Numbered from the stretch's first letter, positions 55,069-64,000 are shown. The stretch is DNA of 64,000 bases from a phage (GCA_019338205.1 GCA_019338205.1_4761.1); one strand, 5' to 3'. Notes: generated from the sequence alone by a model not told the origin. Numbers and translations are program-made.

Positions 55069-58000
55069 TTAGTCTTCCCAGATAAAGTCTACGGTACGAG
55101 TCAGATTATTGGCGATGATTTTAACATTACCAACTTTGATCCAATCACGAACCGTCATAGAGTTCATTAAACCACCTTCTGCAACTACTGCCCCGATTTC
55201 CTGAGCGGTAGGCTTATTCTGTTTGGTGTAAATTTCACCCCATGCGGTCCATTGACCACCAGTACCGGAACGGATATAATGTTTATGAGTACCATCGGGG
55301 GACCAAAGCTGGGTAAGCCCGTCCGCGTCAGTACCCCATTGCATCAGAGTACCGTTTTTCTTCTCTGGATAAGTTTCTTTGATGTTCTGGGTAGAAACGC
55401 GCATATTCCAGAAACCGATGTTACCAATTGCTGGTGCAGTAGTAGCGATCGCTTCATGCTTAACTGATACAATAGACGCATTATCCATAATCAATTTACC
55501 AGTCATTGTATCACCAGCATTCTTAACAAACTGACGATTAAGAACTTCGTCTGCGTTTCCTGCGTGGACGATCTGATATTTCTGTCCGGCAATCTCTGTA
55601 GTAAGCGTCTGATAACCTGCTTTGATGTTAACACTTCCACCGTGACCGATATTCAGCATACCATCTGGGGAACGAGTCATTGCCGGATTAGACTGGTCAA
55701 CAATGTATAAACCGCCTTGTTTCGCATACAGGTTGCGACCTGCAATAAAGTCTCTATATGCTGTCGCGTCGCCATTGTGTTTCATAGCAAAGGCGTAATG
55801 CTCAACGACTCCACCATCATTGATTTTACCGAAAGCGATAGCATCACTATCAACAACTTGCGCTGTTCCAGTACCACCAACGATAATAGACCATGAGTTT
55901 TTCATGCCTTCCGATGCGGTTGTGCCATGCAGAGTAATTCCGGTGTGTCCGTCAACTCCACGCTCACCCAACACCAGATGACCATTACTCGGATCATCAG
56001 TAGAGTTCTTAGTCACAGACAGAGTTTCAAAGGAACCAGATTTTAAACAATCTAAATCGCCCTTCACGTTAACGTTTTTATTAAACGTGTAATTGCTCTC
56101 AATGGTCTGGTCAATGTCTCTACGCGCCCATTTAGCGGCCTCTACGTCACCCAATTTCAAACTATTCTGAGCGGTTGCCATCTTAGGTAAGAAATTAGCA
56201 AGTGCGTAGTTTAATCCTTTAGGGGTAACAGCAATTCCGTCATGCTGGTAGTTTCCTAGTTCTTGAGTAGAACCTTGCAGATTGTCACCAACAAAACAGT
56301 TTTCCTGAGTAGCAACTTTCAAGAAACCACGACGAGCTTCGGTTGCTTTCCATGTATCCTCTGTCTGAACAACATATTTGAAGTTCTTCGGAGAAATTGC
56401 TACATTAGCCAGTGTACCAGCCACGGTTTCGGCTTGAGTACCAACGCGGATAATACCTTCTTTACCTTCGGTGGCCTTTTTGCCTTGCAGCTTTTTAGGA
56501 GTGATGATTGTAGTATCATCTTGACCAACATCCGTAAGCTGAGTAGTAGCAACTTTAGCGACACCTTTTGTGTCTTCGGTTGCATCAAGACCTCTGATCA
56601 TGATACCTTGCCACAAGTCACCAGTAAGGTTAAGCCCCTGAGTCGGGTCTACTTTCAAACGCTGTGCATTCTCAAAGAAGGTTTTAATCTTCAATGGGGT
56701 AGAAATGCGAGCATCGTCACGACCTGCGTCAAACTCTTCTTGAGTTGCAATTTCTGCTAAACCATGTAAAGTTTCCGTTGCGCGGCGAGTATGCAGCTTT
56801 TTAGGCGTGATGATATGGTTATCACTTTGACCTAAGTTTGTTTCTTCCTGAGTTGCAATTTCAGCGATACCAGTACGCGATTCGGTAGCAGTACGTTTCG
56901 TTAGCGTGCGAGTCGTGATTAGTAAAGCATCTTGCGGGGTTGATTCTGTAGCCCCTTGCACTTCCGCGTCAGTTGCCAGATACCCAACACCACGGGAAGT
57001 TTCGGTCGCCTTAACTTCGTTGATGTTTTGCGGAGTAACGATTTTAGCGTGGTCATTGATGTTATAGATCCCTGTACCAGCTTCACCCCTTAGAGCGGCA
57101 GCATTACCGCCTACCTGAACAATTTCAGCGATACCAGCAAGATCCTCTGACGCTCGACGCTCTTCTAACTTCTTAGGAGTGATTGCGCGGGTATCGTCTA
57201 AACCTTCGTTGGTTTCATGTTGAGTTGCAATTTCCATCACACCACGACGGTCTTCGGTAGCAACACAGTCATTTAACTTTTTAGGTGTAACGATAACATC
57301 ATCCAGGAAGCTGGAACCAGTATCTTGATGCGTTTCCGCTTGAGTTGCAATGCGAGCAATACCGCGTCGAGTTTCGTTGGCTGTTTTATTAGCCAGAACC
57401 TTTGGAGTCACCGCAACTTCGTCGCTAGGATTCTCTTCATGGTTTTTATTCGTTTCAGTCTGGGTAGCCAGTGCAATTACACCAACACGATCTTTACGAG
57501 TCGGATCTACTCGTTCTACAATCGGGTGAGCATGTGCCACCAACCAGTATTTCTTACCATCATCACCTTCTGAATAAGAGAACTCCAGATAAGGTACATA
57601 ATCATTTGCAGCGTTGAAAGACAATTCAGATACTCCCGTCCATGTATCGGTCCCATTGAATGGGTACTCGCTACGCTTAGGAAACTGAACCGTGTTTTTC
57701 TGCATAAGGATTTTTGTATCCTCTTCTGAGGTAATGATTCGGCAAGTCTGGTTTCCGCGCATATACTGCATAGAAACTTGAATACGATCACCCGGCTCGA
57801 CATTGGTCGGTAAAGTCAAGGTAACATCACGATCACCAAATACTGCAACATAGCTATTAGGGGATAAGCGAGTATCACTAATGATAGGATTCAAGCGAAC
57901 AGACTGATCACCATCCCACAAACGCCATAAGTTTTCCGGTTTGTCAAATATGAATACACCATGACCGCTACGCTTACCAACAATTTCTTTTACCCCGAAA

Positions 58001-58809
58001 GTACCGATCGATTGTTCTTGCGCACCTTCATGCACTTTTACCGTAACATGGTTGGTTGCAGTCAATCCGTCAAGATCGGTAGTCTGGATCATATCACCGT
58101 TATTAGCAAACTTAGGAAGCATCAAAACAATGTTACCCAAAGAACTACGGCGGAATACCTGATCACCGTTTTGCATCTGGATCGGGTCGATAGATGGTTG
58201 TGCATATACCCCGCGTGGCTCCGTTCCCGTCTGGTAAACGTGCCAGCGATTGCGAACAAAAATGAAGTAGTTCATTGCATAAGGGGTAGTACAGTACCAT
58301 TTGCGGTTGTTTACCACACCATTATGATAGAACTCATGACCAACCGAAAGGAACGATAACTCATTAACACCGCACTTGCCACCGATATCTTTTACTGTTA
58401 TAGTGTCGCCCTCTACAGGATTAGTAGGCATTGAGAATGTCAAGTTTGCAAACTGACAGTCCGCTGCGATATAGTCACCGGACTTTAAAGGAGTATCGCC
58501 GGAAGTTGCTGCAACATAATCCCAACGTGGGTCCGTGCGCAGTGCTTGCCATTTAGTCGGGTCAAAGTCACCTGCTGGTTTTGCGATATCTTCTTTTGCA
58601 TAATACGGACGGTTTTGATAGATTGTAGTGCCGTATTGATCATAACCGCGAGTTGTGTCATACTGAGTAATACCATTATGGTAATTGAAAAATTCAACGT
58701 TGACCGCATCCGTTGATGTGTTTTTATCTGCGTATGCTACATTGACGACCTTTTCATTACCAGCGTCAAAGCCAAAGGTGGCCTTGAAATGTTGAGAAAA
58801 ATCTGCCAT
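55069..58809 (-). CDS. 34: long tail fibre proximal subunit gp34
   Basis: 1246 aa; repeated ...ETRRGIARIATQAE... / ...TPKKL... modules and FPKRSEYP...YVPYLEFSY match remembered T4 gp34. Confidence 0.93.
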   Translation of the reverse strand: MADFSQHFKATFGFDAGNEKVVNVAYADKNTSTDAVNVEFFNYHNGITQYDTTRGYDQYGTTIYQNRPYYAKEDIAKPAGDFDPTKWQALRTDPRWDYVAATSGDTPLKSGDYIAADCQFANLTFSMPTNPVEGDTITVKDIGGKCGVNELSFLSVGHEFYHNGVVNNRKWYCTTPYAMNYFIFVRNRWHVYQTGTEPRGVYAQPSIDPIQMQNGDQVFRRSSLGNIVLMLPKFANNGDMIQTTDLDGLTATNHVTVKVHEGAQEQSIGTFGVKEIVGKRSGHGVFIFDKPENLWRLWDGDQSVRLNPIISDTRLSPNSYVAVFGDRDVTLTLPTNVEPGDRIQVSMQYMRGNQTCRIITSEEDTKILMQKNTVQFPKRSEYPFNGTDTWTGVSELSFNAANDYVPYLEFSYSEGDDGKKYWLVAHAHPIVERVDPTRKDRVGVIALATQTETNKNHEENPSDEVAVTPKVLANKTANETRRGIARIATQAETHQDTGSSFLDDVIVTPKKLNDCVATEDRRGVMEIATQHETNEGLDDTRAITPKKLEERRASEDLAGIAEIVQVGGNAAALRGEAGTGIYNINDHAKIVTPQNINEVKATETSRGVGYLATDAEVQGATESTPQDALLITTRTLTKRTATESRTGIAEIATQEETNLGQSDNHIITPKKLHTRRATETLHGLAEIATQEEFDAGRDDARISTPLKIKTFFENAQRLKVDPTQGLNLTGDLWQGIMIRGLDATEDTKGVAKVATTQLTDVGQDDTTIITPKKLQGKKATEGKEGIIRVGTQAETVAGTLANVAISPKNFKYVVQTEDTWKATEARRGFLKVATQENCFVGDNLQGSTQELGNYQHDGIAVTPKGLNYALANFLPKMATAQNSLKLGDVEAAKWARRDIDQTIESNYTFNKNVNVKGDLDCLKSGSFETLSVTKNSTDDPSNGHLVLGERGVDGHTGITLHGTTASEGMKNSWSIIVGGTGTAQVVDSDAIAFGKINDGGVVEHYAFAMKHNGDATAYRDFIAGRNLYAKQGGLYIVDQSNPAMTRSPDGMLNIGHGGSVNIKAGYQTLTTEIAGQKYQIVHAGNADEVLNRQFVKNAGDTMTGKLIMDNASIVSVKHEAIATTAPAIGNIGFWNMRVSTQNIKETYPEKKNGTLMQWGTDADGLTQLWSPDGTHKHYIRSGTGGQWTAWGEIYTKQNKPTAQEIGAVVAEGGLMNSMTVRDWIKVGNVKIIANNLTRTVDFIWED

Positions 58810-58843
58810 TATTGGGTCTCCTGTTATAATATGAAATTATTTA

Positions 58844-59425
58844 TTGTGTGAGGTGTTTGTTGTGGCAAAAACAAAATTTTGGGATATCGAGACACAGAAA
58901 GCGATAAAAGGTAGATTCTATCATGTCGATGGAATATTATACCATTTAAAGGATTCTGTAGCTGCTGGATTCCGAAAAGAAGGGTCCATATACAAAAAAG
59001 GTGATGTGGTAAGGGTATGTCTCCATAAAGAAGGATATTTATACTTTACATTTTACAACAATGATCATAAACTTAATCTGTTTGTACATAGAGTTGTCTG
59101 GTTTTTAGAGTATGGTACTCAGGTTGAACGAATAGATCACATAGACCAAGACAAAACTAACAATAGACCGTCAAACATGAGAGAAGCAACCGAACAGCAA
59201 AATCAGTTTAACGTCTCAAAGAAAAAGGCTTGCCATAGCAAATATAAAGGTGTATCATTATCACCAAGCAAGAAAAAGCCGTGGAAGGCGTATATTGTTA
59301 TCAATCGAAAGAATATACATCTAGGATACTTTGAGACAGAAGTTGAGGCGGCTAAGGCTTATGACCGTGCAGCACATGAAATAGTTGGCGAGTATGCTTA
59401 TTTAAATTTTCCAAAAAGAGGATGA
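58844..59425 (+). mobile_element. free-standing HNH homing endonuclease with C-terminal AP2 DNA-binding domain
   Basis: HNH motif HRVVWFLEYGTQVERIDHIDQDKTNNRPSNM; AP2 motif YKGVSLSPSKKKPWKAYIVINRKNIHLGYFETEVEAAKAYDRAA; TTG/GTG start, exact start uncertain. Confidence 0.85.
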
Positions 59426-59431
59426 TATATT

Positions 59432-59617
59432 ATGGTTAAAGTTGATTTGTCGGACGGTGCAAAATGGGTAGTTGACAGAATCCCTGATAGGGATTATAAT
59501 TATTTCCGTGCCGAATTAAACAATGCAATTCTGCGAGTTATGGAGAAGTACGGGTATGATCGTGAAGTATCTAACTCGTTTGGCGAATATGTTGTTGTGA
59601 GAGTGGAGAGAACTTAA
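59432..59617 (+). CDS. small hypothetical protein
   Basis: 61 aa; AAGAGGATGATATATT leader. Confidence 0.55.
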   Translation: MVKVDLSDGAKWVVDRIPDRDYNYFRAELNNAILRVMEKYGYDREVSNSFGEYVVVRVERT

Positions 59618-59619
59618 TT

Positions 59620-60567
59620 ATGACGTATAACCCGTTTACAAAAACTACCGCTACACTTAATGATTTCTTTGATGATCCAGAAGATAAACTACCGGAAGGT
59701 GTGCATTTGATTGATATGTCGCAGCTTATGATTGCTACTATCTCGCATACCTTTAAACCGGAAGATCCTATTAATGAAGGCATGATCCGTCATCTTATCC
59801 TTGACACCATGCGTTATAATATGACAAAATTCAAAGAGCAATACCCAATTACGGTACTTGCCTTTGATTCAAGTAAAGGTTACTGGCGACGTGATATCGC
59901 CCCTTACTATAAACGCAACCGTAAGGAAAAACGAGACGCAGATCCGCGTGATTGGGAGATGATCTTTGCTGCGATCAATAAGATCACCGAAGAGTTTAAA
60001 GAGAACATGCCTTATCACGTTATTAAGGTTGACAAAGTTGAAGCAGATGATATAATCGCTGTATTAACTAAAAAGTTTTCTGTCGAAGGTCGCCAGGTGC
60101 TGATCAACTCAGGTGATGGTGACTACACACAGTTGCACAAATACAAAAACGTGAAACAGTGGTCGCCAGTACAGAAAGCGTGGAAGAAATGCAAATATGG
60201 TAGCCCTTACAAAGACCTTATGGTAAAATGTGTTAAGGGTGACGCAAAAGACGGTGTAGCTTCTATCAAGTGCCGTAGTGATTTCATTATCTCACGACTG
60301 GAAGGGGAACGAGCTAAACCAATTGCAACCAAATGGTTAGAGCAAATTTTCGATGCCGAAGATCCAAAGTCTTTGATGACAGAGGAAGAAGCAAGACGTT
60401 TTGACGAAAACCGAGAACTTATTGATTTCGAATTTATTCCCGATAACATCGAATATGAAATTTTGTTAGCATGGGAAAAATCTAAACCAGCACCACGCGG
60501 TAAAATTTATAACTATTTTGTAACAAATGCGTTAGTTAAAATGTTGCAGAAAATTGGTGAGTTCTAA
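59620..60567 (+). CDS. rnh: RNase H (5'-3' flap exonuclease)
   Basis: GYWRRD, FSVEGRQVLINSGDGDYTQLHKYKNVKQWSP, GDAKDGVASIK, LIDFEFIPDNI match remembered T4 RNase H. Confidence 0.93.
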   Translation: MTYNPFTKTTATLNDFFDDPEDKLPEGVHLIDMSQLMIATISHTFKPEDPINEGMIRHLILDTMRYNMTKFKEQYPITVLAFDSSKGYWRRDIAPYYKRNRKEKRDADPRDWEMIFAAINKITEEFKENMPYHVIKVDKVEADDIIAVLTKKFSVEGRQVLINSGDGDYTQLHKYKNVKQWSPVQKAWKKCKYGSPYKDLMVKCVKGDAKDGVASIKCRSDFIISRLEGERAKPIATKWLEQIFDAEDPKSLMTEEEARRFDENRELIDFEFIPDNIEYEILLAWEKSKPAPRGKIYNYFVTNALVKMLQKIGEF

Positions 60568-60577
60568 GGGTTGACAT

Positions 60578-61174
60578 ATGAAAGAACTTGAATTAAAATA
60601 CTATGCACACTCACAAATTGGCGTCGAAACAATCTGTGATTTGTGGGTAGCAATGTATGACGGGTACAATCTAGTAGATCGTGCTAACACTCTAAAACAC
60701 GAATTTTATTATGATACCGAAGATCATGCACTACGTCGAAAAGGAATTTATGCTCGACTTGACGTTAATAGATCATTGATCATGGTCAAAATAGGTGATA
60801 GTGAATCTGGACTCTTCAACCGAGAAGAAATTACTTTTTCAACAACGGATGATTTCTATCACTATGTTGATAGTCTAGGCGTAAACTACGACCTTATCGT
60901 TCCTTTACTTCAAGTAATGACATACCGCAAGTCATTGACACTTGACCTTGAGGGTGCTATAGTGGAAATGTGCAAAGACACTTTCTATTATTGCAAAGTC
61001 GGCGAAAGAATGGGAGAGGCTCACTATGAACTTGAGTTCGAGTTAAAATCAGGTGATGAAAAAGCACTTGACATTATCCGAGAAATGATGCTAGAATATG
61101 TTGGTGACGATTTAAGTCCTAGCGAAATTTCAAAAGCTGAACGTGGTTTTCAATTAATGACGAAAGAGGGTTAA
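60578..61174 (+). CDS. CYTH-like (triphosphate tunnel metalloenzyme) domain protein
   Basis: N-terminal ExExK (MKELELKYY), Arg-rich strand LRRKGIYARLD, C-terminal YELEFELK; 198 aa; family assignment from motifs only. Confidence 0.7.
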   Translation: MKELELKYYAHSQIGVETICDLWVAMYDGYNLVDRANTLKHEFYYDTEDHALRRKGIYARLDVNRSLIMVKIGDSESGLFNREEITFSTTDDFYHYVDSLGVNYDLIVPLLQVMTYRKSLTLDLEGAIVEMCKDTFYYCKVGERMGEAHYELEFELKSGDEKALDIIREMMLEYVGDDLSPSEISKAERGFQLMTKEG

Positions 61175-61178
61175 TATT

Positions 61179-61454
61179 ATGACTGAACAGAAAAAAGAAA
61201 AAGTAGTATTTGACGAAGCAGTGCACGGAAATACCCTGGCACAACTGATTAAAGAAGCCAGCGATCAGAAAACCATTCAAGAAGCATACGGCGATAAGAT
61301 CAAAGAGATCAAACAGCGTGCTAAAGAAGAATTAGGCGTAGATGGTAAAATGTGGGGCATTCTGTTTAAACTGTATCACCAGCAACAGCGCGAAACCTTC
61401 GAAGCAGAACGCGATGAAGCTGTAGAACTCTATGATCGGGTGTTCAATGCTTAA
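61179..61454 (+). CDS. hypothetical protein at the position of T4 dsbA
   Basis: 91 aa between rnh and gp33; assignment by synteny and size. Confidence 0.6.
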   Translation: MTEQKKEKVVFDEAVHGNTLAQLIKEASDQKTIQEAYGDKIKEIKQRAKEELGVDGKMWGILFKLYHQQQRETFEAERDEAVELYDRVFNA

Positions 61455-61701
61455 TGAACATGCGGTAAAAGCCGCGAACAAAACAGCAAACGGTCTTGCA
61501 ATAGAAAAACTGGTTGTTGAAGAGGGATTGACTTATCTTGAAGCGACAACGCAGTTTGTAGAGGAAAACTCTATCGAATATGGTCACTATCAGAAGTATA
61601 TTCCGGTGTCCATTATTGACAAGATCACACAAGAATGTATAGTAAATAGAACGCTCAGGAAGGGAGTGATCGACGAACCGACCAACACTCTCGATATTTA
61701 A
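61447..61701 (+). CDS. 33: late transcription co-activator gp33
   Basis: IEKLVVEEGLTYLEATTQFVEENSIE matches remembered T4 gp33 (EKMVEEFGMSYLEATTAFLEENSIP). Confidence 0.85.
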   Translation: MLNEHAVKAANKTANGLAIEKLVVEEGLTYLEATTQFVEENSIEYGHYQKYIPVSIIDKITQECIVNRTLRKGVIDEPTNTLDI

Positions 61702-61710
61702 GGGGTATGT

Positions 61711-62391
61711 ATGATCAGAAACCGTCTTCCTCCAGATCCAGATATGCGAATTAATGCTAAATCTGTGTATATGTTATATTGCATGATGAAAGCTCACATG
61801 AACGGGCGTTATGATTGCGTAAAATACAATTGGAGGATGCGGTTGTCTGATGCCGCATTCAATAAACGCAGAGATAAGTATTATTTCGCAAAATTAGCGG
61901 AAAAGTACAATCTAAGAGAATTATACTTCCTATTCCTAAGCAATCTGGTAGCTAATACCGATGCATGGGTAGGTGAAATCACTGATGTTGACGCATACGG
62001 CTTTTATATGGAATACATAGGAAAGATAACCGATGCAGCAACACGATTTGACGATGACATTAAAAGTCTGGTATACTTCTCCGAGAAACGCGGGGTTACT
62101 CTTAAAGAGCTAATTACATACAATCCCGCAACCGAAACTAGCGGTATCTTTAAACTACTGCAAAATCGGATTATATCGTTTGAGTCGTTTATGTTGTTGG
62201 ATAGCTTTCTAAATATAATCGATGAACACGACAAGGTAGCCAAAGACTTGATTTGGCAAACTTATAGTGTTAAAATGAAGGCGTACAAGAAACTACTTGT
62301 TATTGACGCCGCAAAAGCAAGAGCATTATTTGTTAAAGTAGTTAAAGAGTGTAAAGAAATATCTCAATTAAAAGCCGAAACAAATAGTTGA
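61711..62391 (+). CDS. 59: helicase loader gp59
   Basis: YMLYCMMKAHMNGRYDCVKYNW...YYFAKLAEKYNLRELYFLF matches remembered T4 gp59. Confidence 0.9.
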   Translation: MIRNRLPPDPDMRINAKSVYMLYCMMKAHMNGRYDCVKYNWRMRLSDAAFNKRRDKYYFAKLAEKYNLRELYFLFLSNLVANTDAWVGEITDVDAYGFYMEYIGKITDAATRFDDDIKSLVYFSEKRGVTLKELITYNPATETSGIFKLLQNRIISFESFMLLDSFLNIIDEHDKVAKDLIWQTYSVKMKAYKKLLVIDAAKARALFVKVVKECKEISQLKAETNS

Positions 62392-62415
62392 CAAGTAAAC
62401 TTAAATCTGTATAAT
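62388..62415 (+). promoter_or_regulatory. sigma70-type promoter upstream of gene 32
   Basis: TTGACA 62388-62393, 16-nt spacer, TATAAT 62410-62415. Confidence 0.6.
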
Positions 62416-62451
62416 AGTCTAGTAAATTAATCAAAAGAAGGAATAGTGAAT

Positions 62452-63420
62452 ATGTTTAAACGCCAAGATTCTTCCAAACTGCAAGCTCAACTGGCCGCAC
62501 TGAAAGGTGGCAACGGTTTCTCCAAAGAAGATCCGAAAGAGTGGAAGATTAAGACTGATGCAGCAGGTAACGGTGAAGCCCTGATTCGCTTCCTGCCGTC
62601 TAAGACAGAAGACGGTCTGCCGATTGTGAAACTGGTAAACCATTCCTTCAAAGTTAATGGTAAATGGTATTGGGAAAACTGCTCCAGCACCCACGGTGAT
62701 TTTGATTCTTGCCCTGTGTGCAAATATATTAACGAAAAAGATCTGTACAATACCGATAAAACAGAATGGCAACTGATTAAGCGTAAAGCCTCTTACTACG
62801 CAAATATTCTGGTACTGAAAGATCCTCAAGCACCAGAAAATGAAGGTAAGGTATTCAAATTCCGCTTCGGTCAGAAAATTTATGATAAGATCGTTGCAAT
62901 GGTGAACGTGAATACCGACATGGGCGAAGTTCCGGTAGATGTAACTTGTGTGTTCTCCGGTGCTAACTTCCTCCTGAAAGCTAAGAAGGTTGATAAACAC
63001 CAGAACTATGATGATTCTCGTTTCATGCAGCAATCACAGCTTCCGAAAATTGAAGACGAAGCATATCAGAAATATCTGATGGAAAACATGGTTGATCTGA
63101 GTGAGATTGTAGCGCCTAGCCAGTTTAAACCGTTCGATGAACTGGAAACCAAATTTAAGAAAACTATGGGCGTTTCTATGGTAGCTGGTGCTGCGGCTTC
63201 CAGTGCTGCGGCAGCGATTAACAGCCAGCTTGACGATTTTGACGCACAGATGAATGCATTCGATTCTGGTATGACCGCAGCTAGCACTGTAGTTGGTATT
63301 AACGCAGCTAGCACGGCGTTAGATTCTTCCGCTGATGACCTGATGGCATCTCTGGACCTGGGTGGCGGTACTTCCTCCGCTTCTGATCTGGATGATCTTG
63401 ACGCTCTGTTAGGGATGTAA
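62452..63420 (+). CDS. 32: single-stranded DNA-binding protein gp32
   Basis: MFKRQDSS...[10 protein letters not shown]...[20 protein letters not shown]...[12 protein letters not shown] and acidic C-terminus match remembered T4 gp32; ATG 62452. Confidence 0.95.
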
Positions 63421-63430
63421 TGAATTTTAC

Positions 63431-63458
63431 AGCCTCCCTCCGGGGAGGCTTTTTTATT
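63431..63458 (+). terminator. rho-independent terminator after gene 32
   Basis: AGCCTCCC-TCCG-GGGAGGCT hairpin followed by TTTTTTATT. Confidence 0.75.
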
Positions 63459-63481
63459 GCCTAAAATTTTATGAAAAGGTG

Positions 63482-63509
63482 TTGACATGCTTATGTGGTA
63501 ATGTATAAT
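63482..63509 (+). promoter_or_regulatory. sigma70-type early promoter
   Basis: TTGACA 63482-63487, 16-nt spacer, TATAAT 63504-63509. Confidence 0.6.
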
Positions 63510-63539
63510 GCACACATCGAAACAATGGAGGATAAAAAT

Positions 63540-64000
63540 ATGTTAGTACGTCAAGCGCATGAAATTGAATGGACTAAGGAGAAACATAATTGTAGAGCGA
63601 AAAGCCCAACAGATTTTTATGGTAAAATTTTAGAAATATGTAAAACAGAAAATTTAGTTTTTGTCGGCTTTGTTGGTGAGTGGAAAGGATGCCGCACAAA
63701 AATAAAACTTAGCTGCAAACACGGTCATGAATGGATATCTTCCATATTACATTTTGTGTATCAAAATACTCGCTGTCCTGTATGTGTTGGTAGATTGTCT
63801 ATCGACGATAGAATGATACAGATTAATCAAGTTTGCAATTCTTTAGGTTATGTAATAATTAAGATCCACGAAGAATGGAAAAACACAGAAACTAAAATTG
63901 ATGTTAAATGTTTATGTGATTATATATGGACAACAACAATACATAGAGTCATACATGGGACTACAGGTTGCAGAAAGTGTGCTACATATGGATACAATAC
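63540..64000 (+). CDS. Cys/His-rich repeat protein, partial (runs off the window end); possible free-standing endonuclease
   Basis: ATG about 63540 after GGAGGATAAAAAT; two repeated modules C.HGHEW...CPVCVG and KCLCDYIW...GCRKC; 3' end not in window. Confidence 0.45.
   Translation, partial: MLVRQAHEIEWTKEKHNCRAKSPTDFYGKILEICKTENLVFVGFVGEWKGCRTKIKLSCKHGHEWISSILHFVYQNTRCPVCVGRLSIDDRMIQINQVCNSLGYVIIKIHEEWKNTETKIDVKCLCDYIWTTTIHRVIHGTTGCRKCATYGYN

Follow-up and report, generated by a model that had tools for sequence, protein, structure and literature searches.

The window considered here is the whole stretch of phage DNA that was analysed, 64,000 nucleotides in length. Over 2.8 kb around the ORF of interest, its identity to 59 phages in GenBank is 96-98.7%; these phages all belong to Krischvirus (including RB49, JSE, KFS-EC, GEC-3S, ECD7 and Phi1), i.e., T4-like Straboviridae infecting E. 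coli and Shigella. The gene order in this part of the window is as follows.

55069-58809, minus strand: gene coding for gp34.
58844-59425, plus strand: gene coding for an HNH-AP2 endonuclease, between gp34 and a 61-aa ORF.
Between the HNH-AP2 endonuclease gene and rnh: the 61-aa ORF.
59620-60567, plus strand: rnh, the T4 RNase H/5'-3' exonuclease gene (PF09293, E 2.6e-37; PF02739), left neighbour of the CYTH gene.
60578-61174, plus strand: CYTH/TTM gene, 198 aa, ATG start, ortholog of RB49p245/RB49ORF244c.
61179-61454, plus strand: dsbA (PF11126, E 5.4e-22), right neighbour of the CYTH gene.

Gene 33, gene 59 and gene 32 follow 3' of dsbA. The CYTH ORF is preceded by a Shine-Dalgarno-like AAGGG (60566-60570), 7 nt 5' of its ATG, and a longer N-terminus is excluded because an in-frame TGA lies two codons 5' of this start codon. 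Its product begins with MKELELKYY, in which ELELK occupies residues 3-7, and carries YELEFELK at residues 150-157 (ELEFELK at 151-157); its stop codon is only 4 nt away from the start codon of dsbA. A preliminary description of this DNA had reported a 198-aa ORF with the ELELK and ELEFELK motifs, and the ORF listing gives exactly those features at 60578-61174. The same description had placed this CYTH-like ORF between rnh and dsbA, in agreement with the Pfam identification of both neighbours, and had noted that T4 is not known to have a gene at this place. Comparison with the T4 genome bears this out: rnh and dsbA are there only 8 bp apart with no gene between them, which makes the CYTH gene an extra gene relative to T4.

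The gene itself has been noticed before. RB49ORF244c/RB49p245 is the same gene at 97% identity; Nolan et al. (2006) listed it with Pfam CYTH (E 0.0026), and the RefSeq note on RB49p245 reads "similar to P45267, P30871, HI1598, ygiF." The 59 GenBank records mostly name the product "hypothetical protein," with "adenylate cyclase" in four and "inorganic triphosphatase" in two. The CYTH domain call is hence already known (2003-2006), in work that came without an activity class, a motif analysis or a population pattern. Full-text searches for functional literature on phage CYTH/TTM proteins, including the RB49/JSE/Krischvirus gene, found none. Iyer et al. (2021) described CYTH triphosphatases scattered among jumbo phages, which might degrade unmodified NTPs. 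What is new here is a YxRxD motif in the tunnel, a divergence island in which the tunnel lining is conserved, and synteny with dsbA that extends down to 31% identity.

Membership of the CYTH family is supported by both profile and fold searches. Pfam PF01928 (CYTH) matches residues 41-190 (E 5.5e-6) with 26.8 bits, a small margin above the gathering cutoff of 23.2 bits, and PHROG 14893, of unknown function, matches the protein end to end. Neither a scan of NCBIfam profiles nor the PADLOC models at E <= 10 gave a match. In a sequence search of the PDB, E. coli YgiF was the sole match (E 0.027 with the single protein, E 0.0032 with the family profile). The AlphaFold2 model, whose input was a shallow family alignment of 18 sequences (pLDDT 90.9, pTM 0.84), has eight long strands (residues 2-10, 31-46, 57-62, 67-76, 79-87, 108-123, 127-140, and 148-159) and a C-terminal plug helix (residues 186-195) that stops three residues before the end of the protein. 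The predicted fold is an eight-strand antiparallel beta-barrel closed by this helix. Foldseek against the PDB ranked YgiF first (E 3.5e-12, TMq 0.77, 24% identity), and all 46 matches at E <= 1e-3 share the TTM fold, including AtTTM3, HpAC1, BH2851, SaTTM, ThTPase, CyaB and viral/fungal capping triphosphatases, as well as the structurally related Mediator Med18 subunits. Since PF01928 scores above its gathering cutoff and the fold searches agree with it, the CYTH resemblance is more than a chance motif match. The triphosphate-tunnel identity put forward in the preliminary description is thus upheld by a significant CYTH profile and by a predicted eight-strand barrel, for which TTM enzymes, with YgiF in the lead, make up all the best matches.

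The active site was mapped by aligning the phage family with its nearest relatives and YgiF, and by reading the alignment against the structures and mutagenesis of YgiF and AtTTM3 and the two-metal TTM mechanism (Martinez et al., 2015). Conservation was scored in two sets, one of 18 family members (45-96% identity) and one of the 148 nearest CYTH representatives from a library of 1.84 billion proteins. The mapped features are the following.

60584-60598, plus strand: ExExK hallmark E3-L-E5-L-K7 (YgiF E4/E6/K8), invariant in 18 of 18 family members.
60749-60763, plus strand: clade-specific tunnel motif Y58-A-R60-L-D62, from YgiF-based alignments and the motif rules of Vogt et al. (2021).
K71: YgiF K69, substrate binding.
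R82 and E84: YgiF R81 and E83, conserved tunnel positions; E84 aligns by pattern with AtTTM3 E90.
R117: YgiF R126, conserved basic tunnel position.
E130 and D134: YgiF E139 and D143, conserved acidic positions.
61028-61048, plus strand: beta-8 acidic motif E151-L-E153-F-E155-L-K157, from alignment with YgiF.
61130-61147, plus strand: SKAERG, start of the C-terminal plug helix, from the AlphaFold2 helix 186-195 and the alignments.

By alignment, E3 and E5 are predicted ligands of metal 2 and K7 a predicted phosphate ligand; these positions are E/E/K in 144-145 of the 148 relatives. E153 is the predicted metal-1 ligand, equivalent to YgiF E160, which is invariant in all TTMs, and E155 (YgiF E162) a predicted ligand of metal 2. 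K186 and R189 correspond to YgiF K191 and R194, and are conserved in 148/148 (Lys) and 132/148 (Arg) of the relatives. R60 aligns with YgiF R56, the catalytic Arg that is essential in both YgiF and AtTTM3 (Martinez et al., 2015), D62 stands in place of YgiF R58, the second tunnel Arg, and Y58 occupies the aromatic position of the W/YxRxR motif of ThTPases. HMMER pairwise and profile alignments placed YgiF R56 on phage Y58 instead, as if the catalytic Arg were missing. This pairing is shifted by two residues and was rejected because the gapless YYDT.D register and MAFFT alignments of 17 and 152 sequences, which put a 2-residue gap in the hairpin loop, give R60.

The mapped residues are invariant in the 18 family members, save for E130, which is Asp in one of them, and the same positions follow the superfamily consensus across the 148 representatives with the exception of D62, which takes the place of the second Arg. 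Judging from these alignments, all residues of the two-metal TTM mechanism are present and invariant in the phage family. Metal 2, held by E3, E5, and E155, would activate the attacking water, while E153 would hold metal 1. R60 would act as the catalytic Arg, with K7, K71, R82, R117, K186, and R189 as phosphate ligands.

Which reaction this site supports can be approached from published motif rules. Vogt et al. (2021) described three determinants in the sequence by which class IV cyclases can be told apart from hydrolases: the HFxxxxExExK motif, the replacement of the first strand Arg by a small residue, and the replacement of the second beta-8 Glu by Ala. First, the HF motif four residues before ExExK is absent from the phage protein and could not be accommodated, since ExExK starts at residue 3 and the in-frame stop codon lies just upstream. 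Second, in place of a small residue, the first tunnel-strand Arg is kept as R60 and is invariant. Third, in place of Ala, the second beta-8 Glu is kept as E155 and is likewise invariant. The CYTH fold and ExExK are shared with CyaB-type enzymes (A. hydrophila CyaB and Y. pestis AC-IV; PDB 2FJT, 3N0Y), and this likeness is the source of the "adenylate cyclase" label found in four phage records; some plant TTMs are also reported to show a weak cyclase side activity. However, given that all three published determinants fail, it is barely credible that the protein is a class IV cyclase, for adenylate or other nucleotides, with which the phage would manipulate host signalling through cAMP or another cNMP. 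YgiF was itself long annotated as a cyclase, yet it lacks cyclase activity and acts specifically as a PPPase, without NTPase activity. With none of the three determinants present and a non-cyclase PPPase as closest characterised enzyme, the protein is expected to be a hydrolase of a triphosphate compound, not a cAMP-maker, and the cyclase label is unsupported and best regarded as a mis-annotation. The two activities entertained in the preliminary description hence part ways: the CyaB-type cyclase is abandoned, and the triphosphatase is what remains.

The identity of the substrate is a more delicate question. In ThTPases, the aromatic residue of W/YxRxR stacks on the thiamine ring, and the other clusters have a small residue at this position (Vogt et al., 2021). 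Position 58 is A, S, G, or T in 130 of the 148 relatives and aromatic in a single one; at position 62, Arg occurs in 142 relatives, and the only cases of D or N are those of two proteins encoded next to phage dsbA. As a result, the tunnel strand reads A/S/G/T-x-R-x-R in 127/148 relatives and YxRxD in the phage clade. The clade thus keeps every catalytic residue and yet departs from its relatives at two positions that published work associates with substrate recognition. The strand register of the predicted structure suggests that Y58 and D62 both point inward. Y58 would then offer an aromatic platform where ThTPases stack on thiamine, and D62 would drop one phosphate-binding Arg. We infer that substrate specificity has shifted, most simply towards a ring-bearing triphosphate. 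Because YxRxD adds the platform and removes the Arg, the preferred substrate is probably an organic triphosphate, e.g., NTP/dNTP-like or ThTP-like, rather than plain PPPi. The aromatic residue may not be essential, since Y58 is replaced by V and I in the two most distant dsbA-adjacent relatives.

Comparison with characterised enzymes helps to situate the phage protein. YgiF (PDB 5A60/5A61; CYTH cluster 1 of Vogt et al., 2021) is a 433-aa protein with a CHAD domain and a GxRxR tunnel strand, whereas the phage-encoded protein, only about 24% identical to it, carries YxRxD and ends at 198 aa with no match to CHAD (PF05235). A recent capture of host ygiF is ruled out by the 23-24% identity and the lack of a CHAD domain. 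The mammalian 25-kDa ThTPase (PDB 3BHD, 5A64) is a more distant structural match than YgiF, and its second Arg, R57, is Asp in the phage protein. Stand-alone TTMs such as NeuTTM, CthTTM, SaTTM, and BH2851 have a small residue followed by RxR, and the phage clade is separate from them and very narrow.

Plain PPPi is still a live candidate substrate, since the closest characterised enzyme is a specific PPPase. The protein could be a YgiF/NeuTTM-like inorganic triphosphatase (PPPi to PPi and Pi) devoid of CHAD, in which YxRxD would be neutral for specificity. YgiF is its best match in both sequence and fold, mutation of the second Arg in AtTTM3 caused no strong loss of PPPase activity (Martinez et al., 2015), and two GenBank records already use this name. 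However, the host pyrophosphatase accounts for most of the PPPase activity of E. coli extracts, in which YgiF is marginal, so that a plain PPPase role seems redundant and less compelling, and the clade departs from 96% of its relatives precisely at the positions linked to substrate choice. We regard this specialised PPPase as possible, although on balance unlikely. A further candidate activity is that of an RNA 5'-triphosphatase with Cet1-like chemistry, whose targets would be the transcripts or primers of host or phage. The fold is common to Cet1-type and giant-virus RNA triphosphatases, the gene adjoins that of RNase H, the remover of 5'-ppp RNA primers, and such an activity would fit the neighbours rnh, dsbA, and gp33. 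The Cet1-like RNA triphosphatase family (PF02940) is neither a profile match nor the closest fold match of the phage protein, and we consider this activity very unlikely.

Relatives of the gene were gathered by metagenome protein searches and contig look-ups. The clade is very narrow: a profile search of the 1.84 billion proteins returned 3 representatives at E about 1e-30 or better, beyond which the matches, at E >= 1e-15, are to ordinary CYTH and CYTH-CHAD proteins of cells (P0050, for instance, has CHAD). A scan of IMG/VR with the family alignment gave at least two loci among the matches listed, and in BFVD, CYTH proteins of other phages are only sporadic and distant. One protein, P0034 (130 aa), was considered as an independent truncation and dismissed, as scaffold Ns lie inside what is an intact gene on the contig. 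In another, P0048 (462 aa, E 1.1e-9), the N-terminal ~175 residues match the phage CYTH profile and are fused to an AAA_28 P-loop, Pfam CYTH itself giving no score.

Synteny is conserved throughout this narrow group. The gene rnh lies 5' of the CYTH gene in all relatives with a readable upstream flank (Skers and loci L004, L005-L007, and L015), and dsbA-gene 33 lies directly 3' in every relative with a readable downstream flank. In P0043, the CYTH protein is 44% identical to that of the window and the products of rnh, dsbA, and gene 33 78-80%; in P0044, the respective values are 37% for CYTH and 75% for DsbA; in P0045, they are 31% and 65%, with the C-terminus of rnh upstream. The CYTH gene is an old resident of the rnh-dsbA slot in a T4-like sublineage, as this synteny is kept in relatives down to 31% identity. 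In every case, it has diverged two to three times as fast as the neighbouring genes.

At shorter evolutionary distance, this divergence is confined to a sharply bounded part of the gene, as revealed by sliding DNA identity.

60605-61025, plus strand: hypervariable allelic cassette, codons ~10-148.
61026-61174, plus strand: 3' end of the gene, conserved like the backbone (among Krischvirus, 95-100% DNA identity).

Relative to the window, RNase H, DsbA, and gp33 are 93-99% identical in Skers and two metagenomic Krischvirus contigs, vs. 57-58% for CYTH. DNA identity to Skers, L005, and L007 remains at 95-100% through rnh, drops to 36-65% at about 60,605-61,025, then returns to 95-100% over the last 150 nt of the CYTH gene and beyond. 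The commoner ECD7/MIZ6/Phi1-type allele, found in 30 of the 59 genomes at about 83% protein identity, displays this island too, identity reaching its lowest values (72-75%) at 60,827-60,961; cassette DNA identity ranges from 72 to 92% against ECD7, MIZ6, and Brandy. Synonymous sites of the island are saturated between deep alleles (pS 0.75-0.79), whereas dS is only 0.03-0.24 in the gene's own 3' end, and dN/dS of the island, in those alleles with enough divergence for an estimate, is 0.27-0.44. Because of these saturated synonymous sites beside a low 3' dS, and of this dN/dS, the island alleles look like old lineages recombined into a young backbone rather than the product of a recent adaptive burst. 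Alleles and nearby markers reassort, given that PTE-Eco09 combines the HNH gene of the window, at 99.8% identity, with an ECD7-type CYTH allele. The GC content of the cassette (39.4% vs. 39.3-41.5% in the flanks) bears no compositional sign of foreign origin. A diversity-generating retroelement or targeted hypermutation was dismissed because the differences extend over 420 bp, with indels among them and synonymous sites at saturation, and no reverse-transcriptase-like product was seen among the ORFs scanned in 58.5-64 kb of the window.

Variation within the island is not evenly distributed over the protein. Mean pairwise identity is 0.75 at inward tunnel positions, 0.43 at outward strand positions, and 0.39 in helices (permutation p 5e-5), the inward/outward register being anchored on the catalytic residues mapped from YgiF and on the published DxY motif, independently of model coordinates. 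This pattern suggests that the chemistry of the CYTH protein is conserved while its exterior is free to change. Smaller mosaic patches occur elsewhere in the block. The 3' end of rnh (~60400-60490) has a second small one, with 65-78% DNA identity to RB49, GEC-3S, and Skers, >90% to L005, L007, ECD7, MIZ6, and Brandy, and 95-100% on both flanks. In gene 59, identity falls to 88-90% at 61948-62082, against ECD7 only, the rest of the gene being at 96-100%.

The block around the CYTH gene is also a hotspot for homing-endonuclease genes. The ORF at 58844-59425 (plus strand; HNH_3 and AP2; 193 aa as listed, with a TTG start) is found by megablast in only 9 of the 59 Krischvirus records (97.8-99.8% identity); RB49, Skers, ECD7, MIZ6, Brandy, and GEC-3S lack it, and in KFS-EC it is unannotated. 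A Krischvirus-like metagenome scaffold (ERZ28576423; L017, 711-1286) codes for a 191-aa HNH-AP2 protein 50% identical to that of the window, whose gene is inserted exactly between the rnh stop and the CYTH start, with the same TAAGGGTTGACATATG junction kept. This precise insertion marks the rnh/CYTH junction as a homing site. In Skers, an HNH gene lies between genes 59 and 32, and T4 has segG at the same place. Two readings of the island follow. On the one hand, the protein may interact with the host, and its surface be under balancing or diversifying selection. On the other hand, the island may be a by-product of homing-endonuclease traffic, because endonuclease-initiated repair would import the flanking alleles of the donor.

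Expression of the CYTH gene was considered from promoter and terminator signals. On the plus strand of 58700-63600, 24 matches to the sigma-70 consensus were counted, vs. 13.8 +/- 3.4 in shuffled sequences. Four sites (59472, 60029, 62388, and 63482), several of them falling within coding sequence, are perfect 12/12 TTGACA-N16/17-TATAAT matches, and the one at 62388 corresponds in position to the annotated RB49 early promoter before gene 32. Two matches flank or lie within the CYTH gene as follows.

60029-60056, plus strand: 12/12 sigma-70 match, candidate early promoter, inside rnh and 520 nt 5' of the CYTH start.
61068-61097: sigma-70-like promoter match within the conserved CYTH 3' end, upstream of dsbA.

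An 11/12 match (TTGACA-17-TAAAAT; 60571-60599, plus strand) also straddles the CYTH start codon; a transcript from this site would begin within the ORF, 3' of its ATG. The only strong terminator found lies after gene 32. Based on the consensus promoter matches and this sole strong terminator, the CYTH gene is likely co-transcribed early with dsbA, 33, and 59.

The CYTH ORF is intact in 58 of the 59 genomes. In phage vB_EcoM_G2494 (MK327935.1; L016, 601-1196), it has a 1-nt deletion at codon 59, inside YARLD, with several non-synonymous substitutions nearby, and is annotated as two ORFs of 66 and 130 aa. This copy may be a genuine pseudogene or else reflect an error in the sequence; if the frameshift is not a sequencing error, the gene would be dispensable for propagation. 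Together with the faster divergence relative to neighbours, the frameshift could be taken to mean that the protein has no catalytic activity and acts only as a binder or sponge, or that it is a remnant in decay. However, the predicted metal and phosphate ligands are invariant down to about 44-45% identity, most of them are also kept in the dsbA-adjacent relatives of 31-37% identity, tunnel-lining positions are selectively conserved, and the ORF is intact nearly everywhere, all of which makes loss of catalysis extremely unlikely.

Taken together, the explanation that we favour, and consider quite probable, is that of a stand-alone CYTH/TTM hydrolase with an altered pocket, coded by an early accessory gene and swapped as cassettes. 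The protein would be a stand-alone TTM whose closest characterised relative is the tunnel domain of the E. coli inorganic triphosphatase YgiF. It is likely an active Mg2+/Mn2+-dependent hydrolase, with no cyclase activity, that would cleave the terminal phosphate from a triphosphate-bearing substrate. The central two-thirds of the gene would circulate in the form of highly divergent cassettes, introduced by recombination into Krischvirus backbones that are themselves nearly identical, with the tunnel lining kept. Such a pattern would fit an accessory enzyme of which the surface, and not the chemistry, is free or pushed to change.

The preliminary description had also suggested that an enzyme acting on nucleoside triphosphates or signalling nucleotides could interfere with defence based on host signalling. 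This idea is speculative: its one indirect support is the hypervariability of the alleles, for which recombination driven by homing endonucleases could equally account. The enzyme might serve in counter-defence by destroying a triphosphate immune signal or a toxic nucleotide, e.g., the dITP of Kongming, the ddhNTPs of viperins or linear 5'-ppp oligonucleotide signals, the diversity of cassettes being then the trace of an arms race with host sensors. The accessory gene, likely early and dispensable, the localised divergence island in a conserved block with a kept active site and a variable exterior, and the altered pocket, which suggests an organic triphosphate, are all congruent with such a role, and triphosphate signals such as dITP are known in E. 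coli defence. Conversely, neither the PADLOC models nor our literature searches provided a link to defence, dN/dS in the island gives no positive-selection signal at gene scale, and a homing-endonuclease hotspot is able to generate mosaicism without any host arms race. Counter-defence is consequently an unlikely explanation. No greater weight goes to its most elaborate form, a counter-defence or host-takeover hydrolase specialised by Y-x-R-x-D for an organic triphosphate and whose cassettes are under balancing selection. If that were true, host systems would sense or inhibit the surface of the protein, ancient cassettes would be held by balancing selection, and the substrate could be dITP, ddhNTPs, 5'-ppp linear oligonucleotides or ThTP/AThTP.

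The favoured reading, a hydrolase with an altered pocket, bears on the annotation of these phages. Assignment of the CYTH domain alone, which is correct but already published, changes little. Correcting the recurrent "adenylate cyclase" mis-annotation of Krischvirus genomes matters more, as some of these genomes come from therapeutic or biocontrol phages, in which a label evoking a cAMP-making enzyme could raise needless safety flags. More modestly, the protein is an uncharacterised member of the CYTH/TTM enzymes with two notable features, its Y-x-R-x-D pocket and its cassette-like allelic diversity. In the pocket, the two residues that differ are precisely at the positions to which structural studies attribute substrate choice. 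Within a block of replication genes that otherwise hardly varies among about 60 phages, only the CYTH gene forms a strong divergence island, and it thereby offers a good natural system in which to address how such islands arise, be it through interaction with the host or as a by-product of homing.
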